Below the pieces are notes generated by a model. The model was not told the origin of the DNA and made no database searches. It saw nothing but the letters and a program-made list of their open reading frames with translations. Of a DNA stretch of 57,811 bases, positions 24,175-50,196 are shown piece after piece (position 1 is the first letter of the stretch; each line of letters opens with the position of its first letter). This stretch comes from Escherichia phage vB_EcoS_AVIO78A: the sequence record MZ726797.1. One strand, 5' to 3'. The position numbers and the translations under genes are program-made.

Positions 24175-24607
24175 TATGGCTAAGGCTAACGTTAATGACA
24201 TAAACCGTATAACAGGTGTCTTTAAAGACATTAAAGCTGACCTGCGAGATTTTACCGATCGTGAAGTCATCCGGTATGTCCTGACGTTACGTAATATTCT
24301 TGTCAGTGAACCACCTGACGGTACACCTGTGGATATAGGCTGGGCAAGCAACAACTGGTGGTTCGATCAGGGGCAACCCGCTAATAGTCCTGATACACCA
24401 ACAGGTAATGTTGAAGCCAGTAAAGCACGTATCGAACAGGATACGGTCACTATCAGCAGTATTAAAGTTAATGGTCAGGAACTGCATATTACTAACAACG
24501 TTCCTTACATTGGGGTTCTCAATGGTGGTAGCAGTACACAGACACCTTCCGGGTTTGTCGAACGTGCTATATTAAAAGCCGGAATAATGGTGAGGTTTAA
24601 TCAGTGA
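24161..24607 (+). CDS. neck/tail completion protein (putative)
   Basis: position in head-tail joining block. Confidence 0.3.
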   Translation: MELPDMAKANVNDINRITGVFKDIKADLRDFTDREVIRYVLTLRNILVSEPPDGTPVDIGWASNNWWFDQGQPANSPDTPTGNVEASKARIEQDTVTISSIKVNGQELHITNNVPYIGVLNGGSSTQTPSGFVERAILKAGIMVRFNQ

Positions 24608-25029
24608 TGACACTCTCAGATGTTTCAGGAATTGTTTATAATCGCGTTCTGGCGAATCTCCCCGTGGAAATTACGCCTGACAGATTTACAATCGCTTCTG
24701 GTCAACTCCCTGATGACACTACAGAAAAACCCGGTCTGATTCTGACACACAATCCCGGTCCGTGGACAATAACCACGCTGGGTGGGGAAGGTGTTTGTCG
24801 CCGTCGTTTAAGAACAGGAAACGTTTTTTTACAGGTACGCACACCTGCTCAGTATGGTATGGACACTTTGAGTATTGATATTGCGGATCGGCTTGCAAAA
24901 TTATTTGAAGGTGTCTGGCAGGACCGCCCGTTAATTTACACGAGTGTTGATATTCGTCATCAGGGTCGTGATAACGCGTGGTTTTTAACGAACGTCGTAC
25001 TTAGTTACGAATACGAAGAAATATATTAA
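24604..25029 (+). CDS. tail terminator-like protein (putative)
   Basis: position immediately before major tail gene. Confidence 0.3.
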   Translation: MMTLSDVSGIVYNRVLANLPVEITPDRFTIASGQLPDDTTEKPGLILTHNPGPWTITTLGGEGVCRRRLRTGNVFLQVRTPAQYGMDTLSIDIADRLAKLFEGVWQDRPLIYTSVDIRHQGRDNAWFLTNVVLSYEYEEIY

Positions 25030-25065: not shown

Positions 25066-26523
25066 ATGGCTGAATCAATTTTTAAATGTTCGCAAACACC
25101 TGCGGCTGACGTAAACGCAACACGACTCAGTGTGGCAAAAGTCTGTGAACCTGTTTCTGGTACACCCTGGACGGTTCAACAACCGAATGAAATCAGTTCT
25201 TACAGTGCTGATATTACAAAGACTCAGCGTACACCGATCAGTACGGACCGATCTGCACGTAAAGGCACGGTAACTAACGTTGAAGTTGCACCGGGCTTTC
25301 AGACAGACCTGACACTTGATACGTTCCGCTACTGGGGTGACGGATTCCTTTATAGTAAATGGGTCGGTGCTGGTGCAATTGATATTGACGTTACCAGTGT
25401 TGGCGCAGACGCTTATAACGTTACTACTCTTGATGCGGCATTACCTGAAGGTGCTCTTGTTTATGCGACAGGCTTTACACTGGCTGCAAACAACGGTTTG
25501 AAAACTGTAGGCGCTGATAGTACCACTACAGCTATCAACGTGTCAGGGCTTACTGCCGAAGCGTCACCGCCTGCTGAAGCTCGTTTGTATCTCGTGGGTT
25601 ATGCTGCCGCGTCTGGTGATATCGCTGTTAACAGTAATGGTCAGTTGACATCTACTACCCTGGATTTTTCCACACTGGGTTTAGTACCGGGACAGTATAT
25701 TTATATTGATGGTCTAACACAGTCGGTTACCAGTAAAATGGCCCGCGTGACTATGGTTGGTGATCATGTTCTGACTCTCGCTAACAGTGAATTCACCACT
25801 GAAGAAGGTACGGGTAAAACTGTACGTTTATTTGTTTCCGGTTTTGTTCGAAACGTTCCTGTTGATTCTGCAGAGTTCGTGAAAACTGAATACACGATGG
25901 AAGCACGTTACAACACGACACCTGTTATTTATGAATATGCGCGTGCTGTAGCTGCAAATCAGATGACGATTAACGCGCCGTTGACCGAAAAAATGACAAT
26001 GGATTTGACGTTTGTTGCGCAAGACTTGTCAGCACCGTCAGAAACCGCGCTACCGGGTTCCGGGTATATTGAATTCGTGGCTAACGAAGCGTACAACACC
26101 GTAACGAACCTGAACCGTGTACGACTGACCGGGATTGATGATAGTGGACTCAGTACGTTCCTGAAAGACGTTACTGTCACCGTGAATAACAACGTGTCAG
26201 GTGAAAACGTGCTGGGCGTGATGGGTGCTGCGTTTACCAACATCGGTAACCTGGAAATCACGATGGAAACTGAAACGGTGATGACGGACGGTGCTGTATT
26301 GGCTGCGATCCGTAACAACGCGACCGTTAACTTCGAACTTGCTGGGGTAAACGGTGATGGTGCAATCGTGGTTAACATTCCTGCGATGACGCTGGGTGAC
26401 GGTTCCAAGAACCTTGCAACGGGCGAAAAAGTGAAAGTCACTGTTAGCGGTAACGCCCACGAAGAAGAGTCGATCGGTTTTATGATTGGGTTTAGCTTGT
26501 TCCCGTACTTGCCTACAGCATGA
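25066..26523 (+). CDS. major tail protein (putative)
   Basis: 485 aa Thr/Val/Ala-rich; before tail chaperone frameshift pair; strong terminator downstream. Confidence 0.5.
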   Translation: MAESIFKCSQTPAADVNATRLSVAKVCEPVSGTPWTVQQPNEISSYSADITKTQRTPISTDRSARKGTVTNVEVAPGFQTDLTLDTFRYWGDGFLYSKWVGAGAIDIDVTSVGADAYNVTTLDAALPEGALVYATGFTLAANNGLKTVGADSTTTAINVSGLTAEASPPAEARLYLVGYAAASGDIAVNSNGQLTSTTLDFSTLGLVPGQYIYIDGLTQSVTSKMARVTMVGDHVLTLANSEFTTEEGTGKTVRLFVSGFVRNVPVDSAEFVKTEYTMEARYNTTPVIYEYARAVAANQMTINAPLTEKMTMDLTFVAQDLSAPSETALPGSGYIEFVANEAYNTVTNLNRVRLTGIDDSGLSTFLKDVTVTVNNNVSGENVLGVMGAAFTNIGNLEITMETETVMTDGAVLAAIRNNATVNFELAGVNGDGAIVVNIPAMTLGDGSKNLATGEKVKVTVSGNAHEEESIGFMIGFSLFPYLPTA

Positions 26524-26542: not shown

Positions 26543-26568
26543 GCCCCGGACAGTTCCGGGGCTTTTTT
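26543..26568 (+). terminator. intrinsic terminator (identical hairpin to 9066)
   Basis: GCCCCGGACAGTTCCGGGGC plus T6. Confidence 0.7.
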
Positions 26569-26569
26569 G

Positions 26570-26737
26570 TTAGCGTTTGGCGAGATAGTCACAACGGGCG
26601 ATTGCTAAATCTGCAGTCTTGTACGAAGACTCACTTGTTGAATGGGTTGTTCCAATAACCATTACATGATATCCGTCTTTGTTTTTTAGAACCCAAAACT
26701 TACCGTTTTCATGAATAATATTTTTCTCTTTGGTCAT
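26570..26737 (-). CDS. small hypothetical protein (55 aa) inserted between major tail and chaperone genes
   Basis: ATG with GAGGATAA RBS about 25 nt downstream of conserved promoter; MTKEKNIIHENGKFW. Confidence 0.45.
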   Translation of the reverse strand: MTKEKNIIHENGKFWVLKNKDGYHVMVIGTTHSTSESSYKTADLAIARCDYLAKR

Positions 26738-26768: not shown

Positions 26769-26812
26769 AAGATACCTTAACAGGTGCAATTCGTCAAGAA
26801 TTATTTTAAATC
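26769..26812 (-). promoter_or_regulatory. conserved promoter (-35 TTGACG, -10 TATCTT)
   Basis: motif family member. Confidence 0.55.
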
Positions 26813-26874
26813 TCTTGCGTAATTTGTACAGAACTATTATTATATAATCGTCTACTACATAAAAGGTAAAAACC

Positions 26875-27297
26875 ATGTCAAAGTTTGACCATTTGAAAAA
26901 AGCACTTTCCCCATTAGTGCTGAAGTCTTCTGCTGAACTGATTTTAAATGAAAATTTCAGTATCACCGTGTTGAACCTGAACACCGCTAACCAGGTATAT
27001 AACGTAACAGTTGCGGACTATGTAAAACAGAACGGTGCGTTGTCTGAAAACTTCTTTGAAAAACTGTGGAATCAGGAATATACACCAGAAGGTGTTAAGT
27101 TCGTGGCTAACGTTCTTATGCTGGACTGGAAACTGATTGGTGAAGATGACAAACCGGAACCATTCAGTGTTGAAGAAGCTATTGAACTGTTAAGTGATGA
27201 ACGTTTTGGTCAGGTGATCTACAGTCGTGTTATTCAGTTCGCAATTAATTCCGCATTCTTCAAGGACGAATGGGAAAAACAGATTGAAAAAAACTGA
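26875..27297 (+). CDS. tail assembly chaperone (G-like)
   Basis: position before tape measure; slippery heptamer at its 3-prime end. Confidence 0.65.
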   Translation: MSKFDHLKKALSPLVLKSSAELILNENFSITVLNLNTANQVYNVTVADYVKQNGALSENFFEKLWNQEYTPEGVKFVANVLMLDWKLIGEDDKPEPFSVEEAIELLSDERFGQVIYSRVIQFAINSAFFKDEWEKQIEKN

Positions 27298-27593
27298 TTG
27301 ACTTCCTCTTGTGGAACGATAAGACAGACGGGGACGACCTGGACTGGGTTACACAAGGGGCGGCTGCACGTGGTATATCTGTTCCGGTTGTTGTACAGAA
27401 ACGTCCTGAATTGCGACCTGATGCTATCTTTTACTGGAATGCTTATTTGGACCTGATGGAAGCTGATTGGGTTGCTTGTGAGCGTTATGCACGGGTGTAT
27501 AACGTTGATGTACAATTCTTGTGGAAATTATTGATAGCATTGCGGTCTGCACGTGTTGCCGAGATGAAGAAAAATAAACATAAGCCCGGTTAA
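26875..27593 (+). CDS. tail assembly chaperone G-T fusion via -1 programmed frameshift at A_AAA_AAC (27288..27294)
   Basis: -1 frame is open from the slippery site through 27593 and has no ATG of its own (TTG only). Confidence 0.6.
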
Positions 27594-27607
27594 CGCCGGG
27601 CTTTTTC
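27584..27607 (+). terminator. hairpin plus T5 (possible attenuator before tape measure gene)
   Basis: GCCCGGTTAACGCCGGGC followed by TTTTT. Confidence 0.45.
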
Positions 27608-27664
27608 ATATATTATGGTTAACGTGTTAAACTGCGTACATGCTTCACGAAAAGGTTAACCAAC

Positions 27665-30580
27665 ATGGCACAATATCCTATTGATATTAAGATTGATACC
27701 GGTTCGGCTGACCGCAATCTTAATAATCTTAACAGTCAGTTAGATCAGACTGAAAAATCAACCATAGCTGCTGCACAGGCTGCTAATCAGTTATCTGTGG
27801 CTGAACAGCAGGTTGCAAAAGCAGCACAGCAACTGGCACAACAACAAGCTAATCAGGCTGCACGTACTATAGCAACTGCTCGCGCTACTCGTGAAGCGGC
27901 AACAGCACAACTACAGCTTGAAAAATCACTTTCTGCATCTACTGATAACTTTCATGTTATTGCACGTTTACAGGCGCAAGTTAAACAAGCTACTGAGGCT
28001 GAAACAAAAGCTACAGAGCAATTGAAAAACAGTCTTAAACAACTTGTACCTGAACAGAAAAAAGTCATAGAAAATACTAAGCAGGTAGAAACCAGCACTA
28101 ACAAAACAACAGGCGCTCTTGAAACACTTGTCACTGGTGCAAAAGCATTTGTTGGTTTACAGATTGCAGGGTCACTTTACGACTGGGGTAAAGCGTTTGT
28201 AGATACTGCAACGAAAGTTGAACTGCTACAGAGTCGCATTAATCTGTACACATCAACGTCGGTTGAATCACAACAGATTTTTGCGCAATTAGTACAACAG
28301 GCTAACCGTGCTGGTACAGATATTGACGCTGTGGCAAACAGTTTTCAGCGTTTTGCCGCTGCTGGTAAAGATGCCGGGATTAGTAATCAGGTTATTTTAC
28401 AGTTTACCGACAACCTGCAAAAAATGGCCCGTGTATCTGGCGCATCCAGTGCTGAAGCATCTGCGGCTATTTATCAATTATCACAGGCGTTTGCATCTGG
28501 TCGTTTGCAGGGGGATGAATTCCGATCTGTGTCAGAACAGTTACCAACTGTTCTTCAGGTGCTGGCTAAACAAATGGGTGTCACCACGGGGGAACTTAAA
28601 CAGTTAGGTTCTGATGGTGAAATTACCCGTGATAAACTGTTGTTGTTAAACAACGCGACTGATGAAATCAGCGCACAGTTCGATAAACTTCCTCGTTCTG
28701 TAGATCAATCTGCTACTGCGTTACGTAACAATCTGTCCGTGGCTATCGCTGAACTCGATCAGCAGATTGGCGCATCTAAATTCCTGGCTAAATTCCTGGA
28801 CCTGTTAGCAGGTGGTGTATCGGGTACAACAGAGTTAATAAAAGCCGCTGCAGGTGCTGACAAACTGGCACAAGCCACTAACAATCTGAACAGTGTTACC
28901 GCAAAACGTGAAGCCAATCTGAAAGAAATTGCAGATCTGGAAGCACAAATTCAGCGTGGGTATACAACACAGTCAATTGGTGGGTATACAAAATTTGTTG
29001 GTGACACCAGTGCTGCACAGAAGAAATTAAACGAACTTAAAAAACTTGATGTTCAGTTAACAAAACAACAAGCAGAAGCACAACGAGGGGTTGTTCAGGC
29101 TACTCCGTTGGGTAAGGGTGTTGCTGAAAATCTTGCAAATCAGGCAAGCACTTTACAGGCGAGTATTACGGCTGCTCAGGCTGCCGGACGTCCTGACGCC
29201 GAATCTGCAAAACAGATTAAAAATCTGAAAGAACAGATCACTTACACCCAGGCGCTTGCTGACGGTAATTATGAACTGGCAGCAAGTCAGAAACTGGGTA
29301 ATAAAGCAACGAAGGAACAGATTGCAGACTATGCTGCGTTGTTGAAACAACAGGCAGAATATAAAGAAAATCAAAAGAACCAGAAGAAATCAGCGAGTGC
29401 TGAAGCGTCTGCGGCTAAACGTGCACAGAAAGAACTGGAACGTAATCAGGCTGCTAACCAGAAATACCTGAAAACACTTCAGGATAAAATCAATGCTGGT
29501 AATTATGATGTTCAGTTAGCACGCGAACAGGTTCAGATTGCTTTAACACAGGGGTCGTCTGTTGAACAACTTACAGCAACATATCAGAAAGAATATCAGG
29601 TACGTCAACAGTTAACGCTGGCTTCACAACAAGCAGAAGCACAGTCACGACTGAATAAAGACGCGACTGATGCTGAACGTGCCGCTGTTGATGCGCATGT
29701 AGCGGCATTGCAACGACAACAGCAGGCGCAACAGTTAGCTGGTCAGGTTTCACAGGTACAAACCGATGTACAGGGTGAGTTGAACCCGTACCAATCACAG
29801 GTTGATCAGGTTAATCAGCAGGAAGCACAACGCCTTACTGTCATACAACAAGCCCGTGAACAAGATTTAATCAACGAGCAACAATACCAGGACATGAAAA
29901 CGCAGATTCAACAGGCCGGGGAACAAGCCCGTACGAATCTTGCAAATGCTAACTACAGCTTGTTGCTACAATCCAGTGCTGATTTTTTGGGTCAAATGGC
30001 TGCTGGTCTGGCACAATCTAAAGGTGAGCAATCAAACGCGTATAAAGCGATGTTTGCACTGTCTAAAGCCTTTAGTATCGCACAGGCGAGTATTAACCTG
30101 TGGACAGCCGTTAGTCAGGCTATGGCGTTGCCGTTCCCGGCGAATATTCCATTCATTGCACAGGCTTTATCATACGGAACAAGCGTGTTGGGTAATATTC
30201 AGTCTGTGGCTGCAACAGGTTTTGCAACGGGTGGTTATGTTAAAGGGCCGGGTACAGGTCAGAGTGACAGTATAAACGCACGTTTGAGTAATGGTGAGTT
30301 TGTCAGTACCAAACAGGCTACCAGTCGTTATCGTAGCACTCTGGAAGCAATGAATCGTGGCACATATACACCAGGATCTGAAGGTGGTTCGTCACCTAAT
30401 ATTCAGGTTCATAATTACGGTGGTGAACGTGTTCAGGTGAAACAAGGATTAACACGAGATGACGTAGTGCTTATCATAGGTGAAGAATTCCCACGACAAT
30501 CAGCGGCACAATGGAATGACCCGTACAGTCAGACGAATAAAGCGTTCAGGTCTAACTATGATGCGAACAGGAAAATATAA
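27665..30580 (+). CDS. tail tape measure protein
   Basis: 971 aa; Ala/Gln-rich coiled-coil composition; position. Confidence 0.85.
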   Translation: MAQYPIDIKIDTGSADRNLNNLNSQLDQTEKSTIAAAQAANQLSVAEQQVAKAAQQLAQQQANQAARTIATARATREAATAQLQLEKSLSASTDNFHVIARLQAQVKQATEAETKATEQLKNSLKQLVPEQKKVIENTKQVETSTNKTTGALETLVTGAKAFVGLQIAGSLYDWGKAFVDTATKVELLQSRINLYTSTSVESQQIFAQLVQQANRAGTDIDAVANSFQRFAAAGKDAGISNQVILQFTDNLQKMARVSGASSAEASAAIYQLSQAFASGRLQGDEFRSVSEQLPTVLQVLAKQMGVTTGELKQLGSDGEITRDKLLLLNNATDEISAQFDKLPRSVDQSATALRNNLSVAIAELDQQIGASKFLAKFLDLLAGGVSGTTELIKAAAGADKLAQATNNLNSVTAKREANLKEIADLEAQIQRGYTTQSIGGYTKFVGDTSAAQKKLNELKKLDVQLTKQQAEAQRGVVQATPLGKGVAENLANQASTLQASITAAQAAGRPDAESAKQIKNLKEQITYTQALADGNYELAASQKLGNKATKEQIADYAALLKQQAEYKENQKNQKKSASAEASAAKRAQKELERNQAANQKYLKTLQDKINAGNYDVQLAREQVQIALTQGSSVEQLTATYQKEYQVRQQLTLASQQAEAQSRLNKDATDAERAAVDAHVAALQRQQQAQQLAGQVSQVQTDVQGELNPYQSQVDQVNQQEAQRLTVIQQAREQDLINEQQYQDMKTQIQQAGEQARTNLANANYSLLLQSSADFLGQMAAGLAQSKGEQSNAYKAMFALSKAFSIAQASINLWTAVSQAMALPFPANIPFIAQALSYGTSVLGNIQSVAATGFATGGYVKGPGTGQSDSINARLSNGEFVSTKQATSRYRSTLEAMNRGTYTPGSEGGSSPNIQVHNYGGERVQVKQGLTRDDVVLIIGEEFPRQSAAQWNDPYSQTNKAFRSNYDANRKI

Positions 30581-47841: not shown

Positions 47842-50196
47842 ATGAAAGGGTTACTGAACCGTAAACAGTGGGTCATGTGGCGACTTGAGACAGTCGCCGA
47901 TCGTCCAAAACCAACGAAAGTACCATACAGCCCGGTACACGGTTATAAAGCCAGTACCACTAACCCTAACGATTGGTCTGACTATCACACCGCGTTGGGT
48001 ATGGCGCAAATGTACGGTATGTCTGGTGTTGGTTTCGTATTCACAGAAAACGACCCTTATTTCTTTATCGATGTTGATAACTGTCTGGTAGATCAGGCAA
48101 CAGCTACGTGGTCACCACTGGCGCATGAATTCGTAAACCGTTTTCCAAATGCTTACACTGAAGTCAGTCAGTCAGGAACAGGTTTGCATATCATCTGTGC
48201 TTATACCAGCATACCGGAAGGTTTTAACAGTCTGAACGACCAGAAAACCGGGCTGGAAATGTACTGGCGTGATCGTTTCGTCGCGATGACGCTCACGGGT
48301 AATGGTGATGTTGATATTGATTATACCCAGGGTATTCATGATTCTATTGCCCGGTATGGTCGTATCCGTTCAGACCGTTCCGCACGCTGGACAACAGCAC
48401 CCTGTGATGACTGGTCAGGTCCGGCAGACGATGATGAACTGATTAAAATGGCGTTAAATTCGTCCAGTGCTGCTTCAGTATTTGGTAATAAAGCGTCATT
48501 TGCAGATCTGTGGAATGCAAACGTTGAACGCCTGTCTGTGTCATATCCCAGCGACCAGGGAAAAGACTACAATGCATCTGCCGCTGATGCTGCCCTGTGC
48601 TCACACCTTGCGTTCTGGACCGGGAAAGATTGCGAACGCATTGAACGGTTGTTTAACCGTTCCGGGCTGGTTCGTGGTAAATGGACAGACCGTCAGGATT
48701 ACCGTGAGAATACGATTCTGGGCGCTGTGGAACGTTGCGATACTGTTTATCGTAGTCAACCGACGCTGACACCAGAACTGATGAAAGCAGTCACACCAGC
48801 GCCTGCCATCGTTCCTAACGGTGGAACACCTGCGTACATGAGTGTGAAACCCGGTGAAGGTGCATATGGTTCAAACCATACGGTTAACGCATCCACGTTC
48901 GTTAATAACTATTATCCGAACAACACATTGATTTTTGTCCAGCAACAGCCGTACCGGTTCAACGGTCGTGTGTGGGAACGTGTCAGTGAAGATGAATTGA
49001 AACATCAGATATCCATGGCAATGCTTGCCAGCGAACCAAAAGCTGACGTGATTAATGGTACGTACAAGGTTTTGTCGTATTTATTCACACGCGCTGATCG
49101 TGAGCTTGGAACATGGCCCGGCGTTGATGTATCACACTATATTGTTTGTCAGAACGGGATACTGGATGTACATACGGGTAAATGTGATGCACATAACCCG
49201 GATTTCTTTACGACCAGTATTTTACCGTATAGCTACGACCCGTTTGCTCGCGCACCAGCGTTTGAACAGTTTTTAAATACAACTCTGGAAGGTGATCAGG
49301 AACGTATTGCACTGTTGCAGGAATGGCTGGGTTATATGCTTGTCAACTCGTATGACTATCAGAAAGCGATGCTGTTGATTGGTGCGCCACGTTCCGGTAA
49401 AGGTACGATCGGTCGTATTATTCAGGCACTGGTAGGTGACGAAGCATATGCAGGGATCACACTGGAGGGTTTAGCAAGTGATGCGGTACTTGAAACTGTG
49501 CTGGATAAATCTGTGCTGTTTATTGGTGATGCTCACAGTGTGTCCGGGCCTGATCGCAACCGAATTCTGGACCGTTTCAAATCTATTACAGGTTGTGATG
49601 CGATTCCGGTTAATCGTAAGTATAAAGGTGCATGGAACGGTCGTTTACCTGGACGTATGACACTGGCTGCTAACAACATCCCGGCATTTGCTGATGATTC
49701 CGGTGCAATGGCTAACCGTTTGCTGATCCTACCGTTCAACATTTCGTTCCTGGGTCGTGAAGATACTACTCTGGAAGCACGACTGATGAAAGAACTACCG
49801 GGGATCTGTAACTGGGCGATTGAAGGTTTGCAACGGTTACGTGCAAACGGACGGTTTACTGAACCAAAAGCAAGTCTGGAAGAACGTCAGGAAATTATGG
49901 ATCAACAATCACCACTTAGAAGTTTTATCAGAGATTGTTGCGAATTGGTATCTGATGGTGAGGTGCACACTGAAGAACTCTATGGTCGTTATCGTCTCTG
50001 GAAAACACAGGAAGGTGGTCCAGCAATGACTAAAACTGCATTTAGTCGGGCGTTTAAATCCACCCTTCGTGGTAAAGTGAAAAAAGACGTCGTTAATATA
50101 AATAACGTTCGACTAAACGGTTTCAGGGGTATTCGTCTTCTCCCTTTTCAGTCAACAGCTAACGTAGTGCCTTTCCCACCTGCGAGTAACGGTTAG
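47842..50196 (+). CDS. primase-helicase (primase/polymerase-like N-domain fused to P4/D5-type helicase)
   Basis: 784 aa; Walker A GAPRSGKGT in C-terminal half; N-terminal FIDVDN acidic motif. Confidence 0.7.
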   Translation: MKGLLNRKQWVMWRLETVADRPKPTKVPYSPVHGYKASTTNPNDWSDYHTALGMAQMYGMSGVGFVFTENDPYFFIDVDNCLVDQATATWSPLAHEFVNRFPNAYTEVSQSGTGLHIICAYTSIPEGFNSLNDQKTGLEMYWRDRFVAMTLTGNGDVDIDYTQGIHDSIARYGRIRSDRSARWTTAPCDDWSGPADDDELIKMALNSSSAASVFGNKASFADLWNANVERLSVSYPSDQGKDYNASAADAALCSHLAFWTGKDCERIERLFNRSGLVRGKWTDRQDYRENTILGAVERCDTVYRSQPTLTPELMKAVTPAPAIVPNGGTPAYMSVKPGEGAYGSNHTVNASTFVNNYYPNNTLIFVQQQPYRFNGRVWERVSEDELKHQISMAMLASEPKADVINGTYKVLSYLFTRADRELGTWPGVDVSHYIVCQNGILDVHTGKCDAHNPDFFTTSILPYSYDPFARAPAFEQFLNTTLEGDQERIALLQEWLGYMLVNSYDYQKAMLLIGAPRSGKGTIGRIIQALVGDEAYAGITLEGLASDAVLETVLDKSVLFIGDAHSVSGPDRNRILDRFKSITGCDAIPVNRKYKGAWNGRLPGRMTLAANNIPAFADDSGAMANRLLILPFNISFLGREDTTLEARLMKELPGICNWAIEGLQRLRANGRFTEPKASLEERQEIMDQQSPLRSFIRDCCELVSDGEVHTEELYGRYRLWKTQEGGPAMTKTAFSRAFKSTLRGKVKKDVVNINNVRLNGFRGIRLLPFQSTANVVPFPPASNG

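Follow-up and report, generated by a model that had tools for sequence, protein, structure and literature searches.

A lambda-type programmed -1 frameshift site very probably joins the tail assembly chaperone reading frames G and T of Escherichia phage vB_EcoS_AVIO78A

How might Escherichia phage vB_EcoS_AVIO78A translate the reading frame T that continues, in the -1 register, behind the gene of its G-like tail assembly chaperone? We addressed this question with the whole sequence record MZ726797.1, a stretch of 57,811 nucleotides (nt) that is referred to here as the window and whose source phage is a Sashavirus/9NA-like siphophage. A first-pass annotation of this DNA had proposed that the heptamer A_AAA_AAC at the end of the G open reading frame (ORF) serves as a programmed -1 frameshift site for the tail assembly chaperone. 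Our analysis leads us to the same view: the heptamer at 27288-27294 is, with high probability, a programmed -1 ribosomal frameshift site of the type represented by the G/GT genes of phage lambda. The elements on which this view is built are the following:

26875..27297, + strand: G-like tail assembly chaperone ORF, 140 amino acids, zero frame, stop codon TGA at 27295-27297
27285..27287, + strand: TGA of the -1 frame that adjoins the 5' side of the heptamer and confines productive shifting to 7 nt
27288..27294, + strand: slippery heptamer A_AAA_AAC, the proposed -1 shift site, in the X_XXY_YYZ register of the zero frame
27294..27593, + strand: T extension (LIDFLLWNDK...KHKPG), 99 codons plus TAA, -1 frame
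join(26875..27294, 27294..27593), + strand: predicted GT fusion, 239 amino acids, with length and join as in gp45 of phage Sasha

The G ORF ends with ...CAG ATT GAA AAA AAC TGA, so that AAC (27292-27294) is the final sense codon of G and the stop codon TGA (27295-27297) follows immediately on its 3' side. The first-pass annotation had placed the heptamer one codon ahead of the stop; its assignment of A_AAA_AAC to the end of the ORF stands, but the intervening codon has to be struck out, as AAC is directly followed by TGA. Its further statement that the -1 frame stays open to 27593 without an initial ATG of its own was borne out. From 27288 onwards, this frame contains no stop codon until the TAA at 27591-27593, so that 99 codons lie past the shift; its first ATG occurs at 27456 (codon 54). 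Since the TGA of the -1 frame at 27285-27287 is located directly upstream of the heptamer, the productive overlap between the two frames measures exactly 7 nt and is identical with the heptamer itself. A TGA abutting the heptamer in this manner is found only in the window and in Sasha, and the overlap extends over 16-70 nt in the other relatives.

The closest annotated relatives carry the same arrangement. G shares 97% amino-acid identity with gp44 of Sasha and 88% with gp48 of phage 9NA, while the corresponding values for T are 96% and 84%, respectively. In the record of Sasha (KX987158), gp44 corresponds to G, and the joined coding sequence (CDS) gp45 is labelled 'frameshift product'; in that of 9NA (KJ802832), gp48 corresponds to G, and gp49 is labelled 'translated with -1 frameshift'. 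The frameshift feature of the window is hence real but already known, as it is annotated in these two orthologues. Our literature search found no experiment demonstrating the frameshift or the fusion protein in 9NA/Sasha-like phages. In tblastn searches, G and T each matched about 93 phage records, and among the records listed, the last base of the G match was also the first base of the T match (a 1-nt overlap) in every host group. Matches that share a single base in this way are the signature of a -1 junction.

We traced the heptamer through 28 loci, which comprise the window, 14 phage loci (Sasha, 9NA, three Klebsiella phages, one Morganella phage, a contig from bat faeces, two Proteus phages and five Vibrio phages) and 13 loci from IMG/VR. 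In all 28, and across G identities that range from 25 to 99%, A_AAA_AAC is present in register, 0-1 codons ahead of the G stop and inside the zone in which the -1 frame is open. A 131-nt alignment around the site is free of gaps; the 8-mer AAAAAACT is the longest stretch in it that never varies, and no other invariant stretch exceeds 3 nt. The codon that precedes the heptamer encodes Glu, Thr, Val, Ile or Leu (GAA, ACA, GTA, ATA, CTA), with A as its third base throughout. The three synonymous sites within the heptamer are all invariant, as opposed to 2 of the 41 third positions that flank it, which argues for selection on the nucleotide sequence and not on the protein. An AlphaFold model of G (predicted local distance difference test score, pLDDT, of 86) predicts disorder for the five C-terminal residues (pLDDT <50), and it is therefore unlikely that the Lys-Asn pair is kept invariant on structural grounds.

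Both parts of the putative fusion can be recognized as tail assembly chaperone sequences. G matches positions 5-140 of the 271 positions of phrog_8233 ('tail assembly chaperone') with an E value of 4e-48, and T matches positions 141-250 of the same profile (E 1e-30), contiguous with the match of G. It follows that the profile was built from fused GT proteins and that the window reproduces their fusion point. G also matches phrog_313 (E 1.5e-18), and Pfam provided no family for it. T of the window scored 23.5 bits against PF23812 (Phage_TAC_18) and thereby missed the cutoff of 27, yet this family was matched by each of the 15 homologous T segments (best E 1.5e-13). When the structural model of G was compared with BFVD, it matched predicted structures of phage proteins that are annotated as tail or tape-measure chaperones (E 2e-5 to 7e-3, template modelling score of approximately 0.5). 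These include proteins of the unrelated phages CcrColossus and Sansa (Caulobacter), BUCT548 (Stenotrophomonas), Suba (Xanthomonas) and PM135 (Proteus). When the profile of G was searched against the sequences of the PDB, nothing meaningful was returned (E about 0.8, TetR proteins).

The position of the two frames within the genome fits this identification. Two landmark genes flank them:

25066..26523, + strand: major tail tube protein gene, upstream landmark (PF18906, Phage_tube_2, E 2e-17), annotated in Sasha and 9NA
27665..30580, + strand: tape measure protein gene, downstream landmark (PF20155, TMP_3, E 7e-53; phrog_1107, E 1e-185)

Overlapping G and T ORFs between a major tail tube gene and a tape measure gene represent the canonical G/GT position, in line with the background given by the first-pass annotation, according to which G/GT frameshifting is conserved upstream of tape measure genes in long-tailed phages. 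The major tail tube protein of 9NA has been identified via N-terminal sequencing (PMC4153490). In sum, the proposal of a programmed -1 frameshift site for the tail assembly chaperone is upheld by the register of the heptamer, by homology, by gene position, by conservation in 28 of 28 loci and by the annotations of Sasha and 9NA.

With regard to elements that might stimulate the shift, no conserved downstream RNA structure was found. Three downstream segments folded around 27295-27420 gave z-scores of -0.5, -1.0 and +0.3, and a fourth, which includes the heptamer, gave -1.9. RNAalifold derived 0 consensus pairs from an alignment of 15 sequences, and no conserved stem-loop or pseudoknot of the dnaX type was found 5-9 nt after the heptamer. 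An Rfam scan of 26800-27700 yielded only sub-threshold, leader-like matches that are due to a terminator hairpin. We also considered a hairpin of 9 base pairs (bp) in the window (27305-27313 with 27352-27360) as a conserved element and rejected it, as 51% of it is paired across the relatives, which is no better than in slid controls. On the 5' side of the heptamer, the window offers one candidate, an element that resembles a Shine-Dalgarno (SD) sequence:

27272..27275, + strand: weak SD-like GGGA, 12 nt upstream of the heptamer, with a duplex of -4.2 kcal/mol with the 3' end of 16S rRNA

A duplex of this strength is reached by 19% of the background windows, and it is doubtful that GGGA acts as a shift stimulator in this phage. 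Purine-rich, SD-like sequences at a distance of 6-11 nt from the 5' end of the heptamer (27266-27287 in the window, and homologous positions elsewhere) nevertheless occur in 15 of 15 loci, and the predicted duplex is considerably stronger in several of them: -7.3 kcal/mol in 9NA and the Klebsiella phages, a value reached by 2% of the background windows, -9.5 kcal/mol in Vibrio phage VpaJT_1 and -10.2 kcal/mol in the Morganella phage. This signal is confounded, however, because a conserved pair of Trp and Glu codons accounts for most of it, and we consequently treat the element as a possibility rather than as a finding. The adjacent stop codon of G could, in addition, slow the ribosome on the heptamer.

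Might T instead be a gene in its own right, translated from TTG 27309 (94 amino acids) or from another internal start codon? An ORF that begins with this TTG (27309..27593) does exist in the window, and separate CDSs named 'tail chaperonin' or 'tail assembly protein' have been annotated in Vibrio phage K453 and in the Proteus phages Isfahan and RS10pmA. But TTG 27309 is not preceded by an SD sequence in the window, the candidate starts of T fall on differing, non-homologous codons (3, 5, 8, 18, 29 or 39, depending on the phage), mostly without an SD sequence, and the 90-codon T frame of 9NA (positions 2305-2577 of the 9NA locus) contains no ATG, GTG or TTG whatsoever. Moreover, the conserved amino-acid pattern of T (L-x-x-x-L-x-W/F...) begins with the first -1 codon on the 3' side of the heptamer and thus upstream of every candidate start. 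Judged from these sequences, the comparison of relatives excludes an independent initiation of T, and we regard such a gene as highly improbable; the separate T genes in some Vibrio and Proteus records are most simply explained as artefacts of gene calling. An independent start for the downstream frame, which the first-pass annotation had named, together with the lack of a fusion product, as an outcome that would speak against its own proposal, accordingly found no support. It might further be argued that the heptamer occurs at the end of an ORF by chance, or that a sequencing indel in the A run has split a single gene. AAAAAAC is indeed as frequent as chance predicts (20 copies in the window versus 25 expected from shuffles), and homopolymer runs are error-prone in sequencing; as the motif is not enriched, the case for a shift site rests on register, position and conservation and not on rarity. 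Yet the same split, frame relation and heptamer recur in 28 independently sequenced genomes or contigs, and synonymous sites are frozen in the heptamer only, so that chance or a sequencing artefact is effectively refuted and receives next to no weight from us. Among the 59 in-frame XXXYYYZ heptamers present in window ORFs of at least 100 amino acids (six frames), that at 27288-27294 is the sole one that ends a real gene and is followed by a long -1 continuation. The few other heptamers with long continuations reside in spurious ORFs nested within larger genes, as exemplified by 29940..30275 inside the tape measure gene.

The T frame could also be reached on the level of the mRNA, if RNA polymerase added one A at the 7-A run 27287-27293 in some of the transcripts; the junction would then read ...EKK/LIDF..., and no ribosome would have to slip. 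The site is a homopolymeric A run, one inserted A puts T into the same frame as a -1 ribosomal shift, and a conserved RNA stimulator was not found, all of which would agree with transcriptional slippage. Productive slippage of this kind in bacteria, however, usually needs about nine or more A/T and is independent of the codon register. The run comprises 7 A in the window and just 6 A in most relatives (ACA AAA AAC, GTA AAA AAC), and thus falls short of this length. Furthermore, the zero-frame register and the C at heptamer position 7 are invariant in all 28 loci, as is predicted by the ribosomal X_XXY_YYZ rule and not by a polymerase that is indifferent to register. We therefore infer that ribosomes carry out the shift, and deem transcriptional slippage very unlikely. 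One might finally combine the frozen A_AAA_AAC(T) against the G stop with the SD-like element seen in several lineages into a distinct, structure-free cassette, in which the adjacent stop codon and the interaction with the anti-SD sequence would set a low GT:G ratio from Enterobacteriaceae to Vibrio, or suppose that a part of GT arises from polymerase stuttering on the A run. We consider this reading unlikely as well, and prefer a programmed -1 ribosomal frameshift of the lambda type.

Such a frameshift lends itself to the following model. The majority of the ribosomes would translate 26875..27297, terminate at TGA and thereby release the 140-amino-acid chaperone G. A minority would slip by -1 on A_AAA_AAC, where tRNA-Lys (on AAA) and tRNA-Asn (on AAC) would re-pair to AAA AAA. 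After the slip, CTG at 27294 would be the next codon, and translation up to 27593 would produce GT of 239 amino acids with the junction ...QIEKN/LIDFLLW.... By analogy with lambda, the tape measure protein would be the partner of the G part, while the T part would recruit the major tail tube protein; GT and G would be made in a low and fixed ratio, and both would be absent from the virion. In lambda, where a G:GT ratio of about 30:1 is of critical importance, the tape measure protein is bound by G and the tail tube protein by T, and the virion contains neither of the two chaperones (PMC5009743). In E. coli, shifting on A_AAA_AAC is much weaker than on A_AAA_AAG (PMC5009743), which fits a low GT fraction and a selection for C over G at position 7 of the heptamer.

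How closely does this locus resemble frameshift systems that are already known? The orthologues gp44/gp45 of Sasha and gp48/gp49 of 9NA share with it the heptamer, which likewise lies at the stop codon of G, and the tail tube and tape measure genes on either side; 9NA differs by a 25-nt overlap and a T part that is nine codons shorter. For lambda itself, frameshifting at G/GT has reportedly been studied by Levin, Hendrix and Casjens in 1993 and by Xu, Hendrix and Duda in 2004, 2013 and 2014, and its slippery heptamer is G_GGA_AAG. The gene position, the -1 direction, the location of the shift near the 3' end of G and a T part without a start of its own are alike in lambda and in the window, and, as in lambda, no essential downstream RNA structure was detected at the window's site. 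The two systems differ in the heptamer, in that A_AAA_AAC abuts the G stop in the window, and in their proteins: we detected no sequence similarity of the window's G or T to G or T of lambda, and T belongs with Phage_TAC_18. We judged membership in the lambda type by the sequence criteria of Xu et al. (2004), and found at this locus the gene position, a slippery site in register within the overlap, a T frame without start codon or SD sequence, and a conservation that exceeds the needs of coding. The work on the lambda G/GT frameshift has been reviewed (PMC5009743).

The frameshift site of E. coli dnaX, in which A_AAA_AAG is flanked by an SD-like element on its 5' side and a hairpin on its 3' side, is comparable with respect to the A-rich Lys heptamer, and the candidate SD-like element is strong in some relatives of the phage. 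In contrast to dnaX, the heptamer of the window ends with C instead of G, a conserved downstream hairpin is missing, and the SD-like element is weak and confounded by the conserved codons. A_AAA_AAC has been reported as the shift site of the tail chaperone g-t pair in the haloarchaeal siphovirus HCTV-2 (PMC5009743). HCTV-2 infects an archaeon and is not related to the phage; the likeness noted here lies in the heptamer.

These data have practical consequences for annotation. The record of the window should include a joined CDS, join(26875..27294, 27294..27593), for the GT chaperone of 239 amino acids. The same rule could correct the records of relatives in which T was left unannotated or was given an arbitrary start: in GenBank, T is unannotated for the Klebsiella phages e270.1, Carvaje and VLCpiS10a, and the records of Vibrio phages and of the Proteus phages Isfahan and RS10pmA present T as a gene of its own, whose start codons are not homologous, in both cases despite the same A_AAA_AAC junction. 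As a contribution to the biology of tail assembly, the locus adds one more clean case of conserved G/GT recoding and alters no open question. Its shift zone, which coincides exactly with the 7-nt heptamer, would be well suited as a minimal reporter with which to follow shifting on A_AAA_AAC in enterobacteria.

The wider neighborhood of the G/GT unit contains three further features:

24604..25029: tail terminator gene, upstream (phrog_179)
26543-26562: terminator-like hairpin with T run, after the tail tube gene; a terminator is annotated in Sasha
27582..27603, + strand: terminator-like hairpin with T run, seemingly bidirectional and overlapping with the stop codon of T; a terminator is annotated in Sasha

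The G/GT unit is thus flanked by terminator-like hairpins on both sides. The location of the second hairpin at the end of T suggests that a terminator separates G/GT from the tape measure gene, and no sigma-70-like promoter was detected ahead of the start of that gene at 27665. Elsewhere in the window, an in-frame G_GGA_AAG at 48622-48628 (ORF 48467..48769) was examined as a recoding candidate and rejected: the ORF is nested in the gene 47842..50196, and the 522 codons of its -1 frame are those of this real gene.

What separates G from the tail tube gene varies among the relatives. In the window, this slot is occupied by an ORF of 55 amino acids on the - strand (26570..26737), which matches phrog_20712, a family of unknown function, with an E value of 2e-27; intergenic DNA extends from there to 26874. 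Sasha differs from the window in this respect, as it carries a reverse gene of 624 bp at this position; Carvaje possesses a 219-bp reverse gene, the Proteus phages a 498-bp reverse gene, and the Vibrio phages other small genes.
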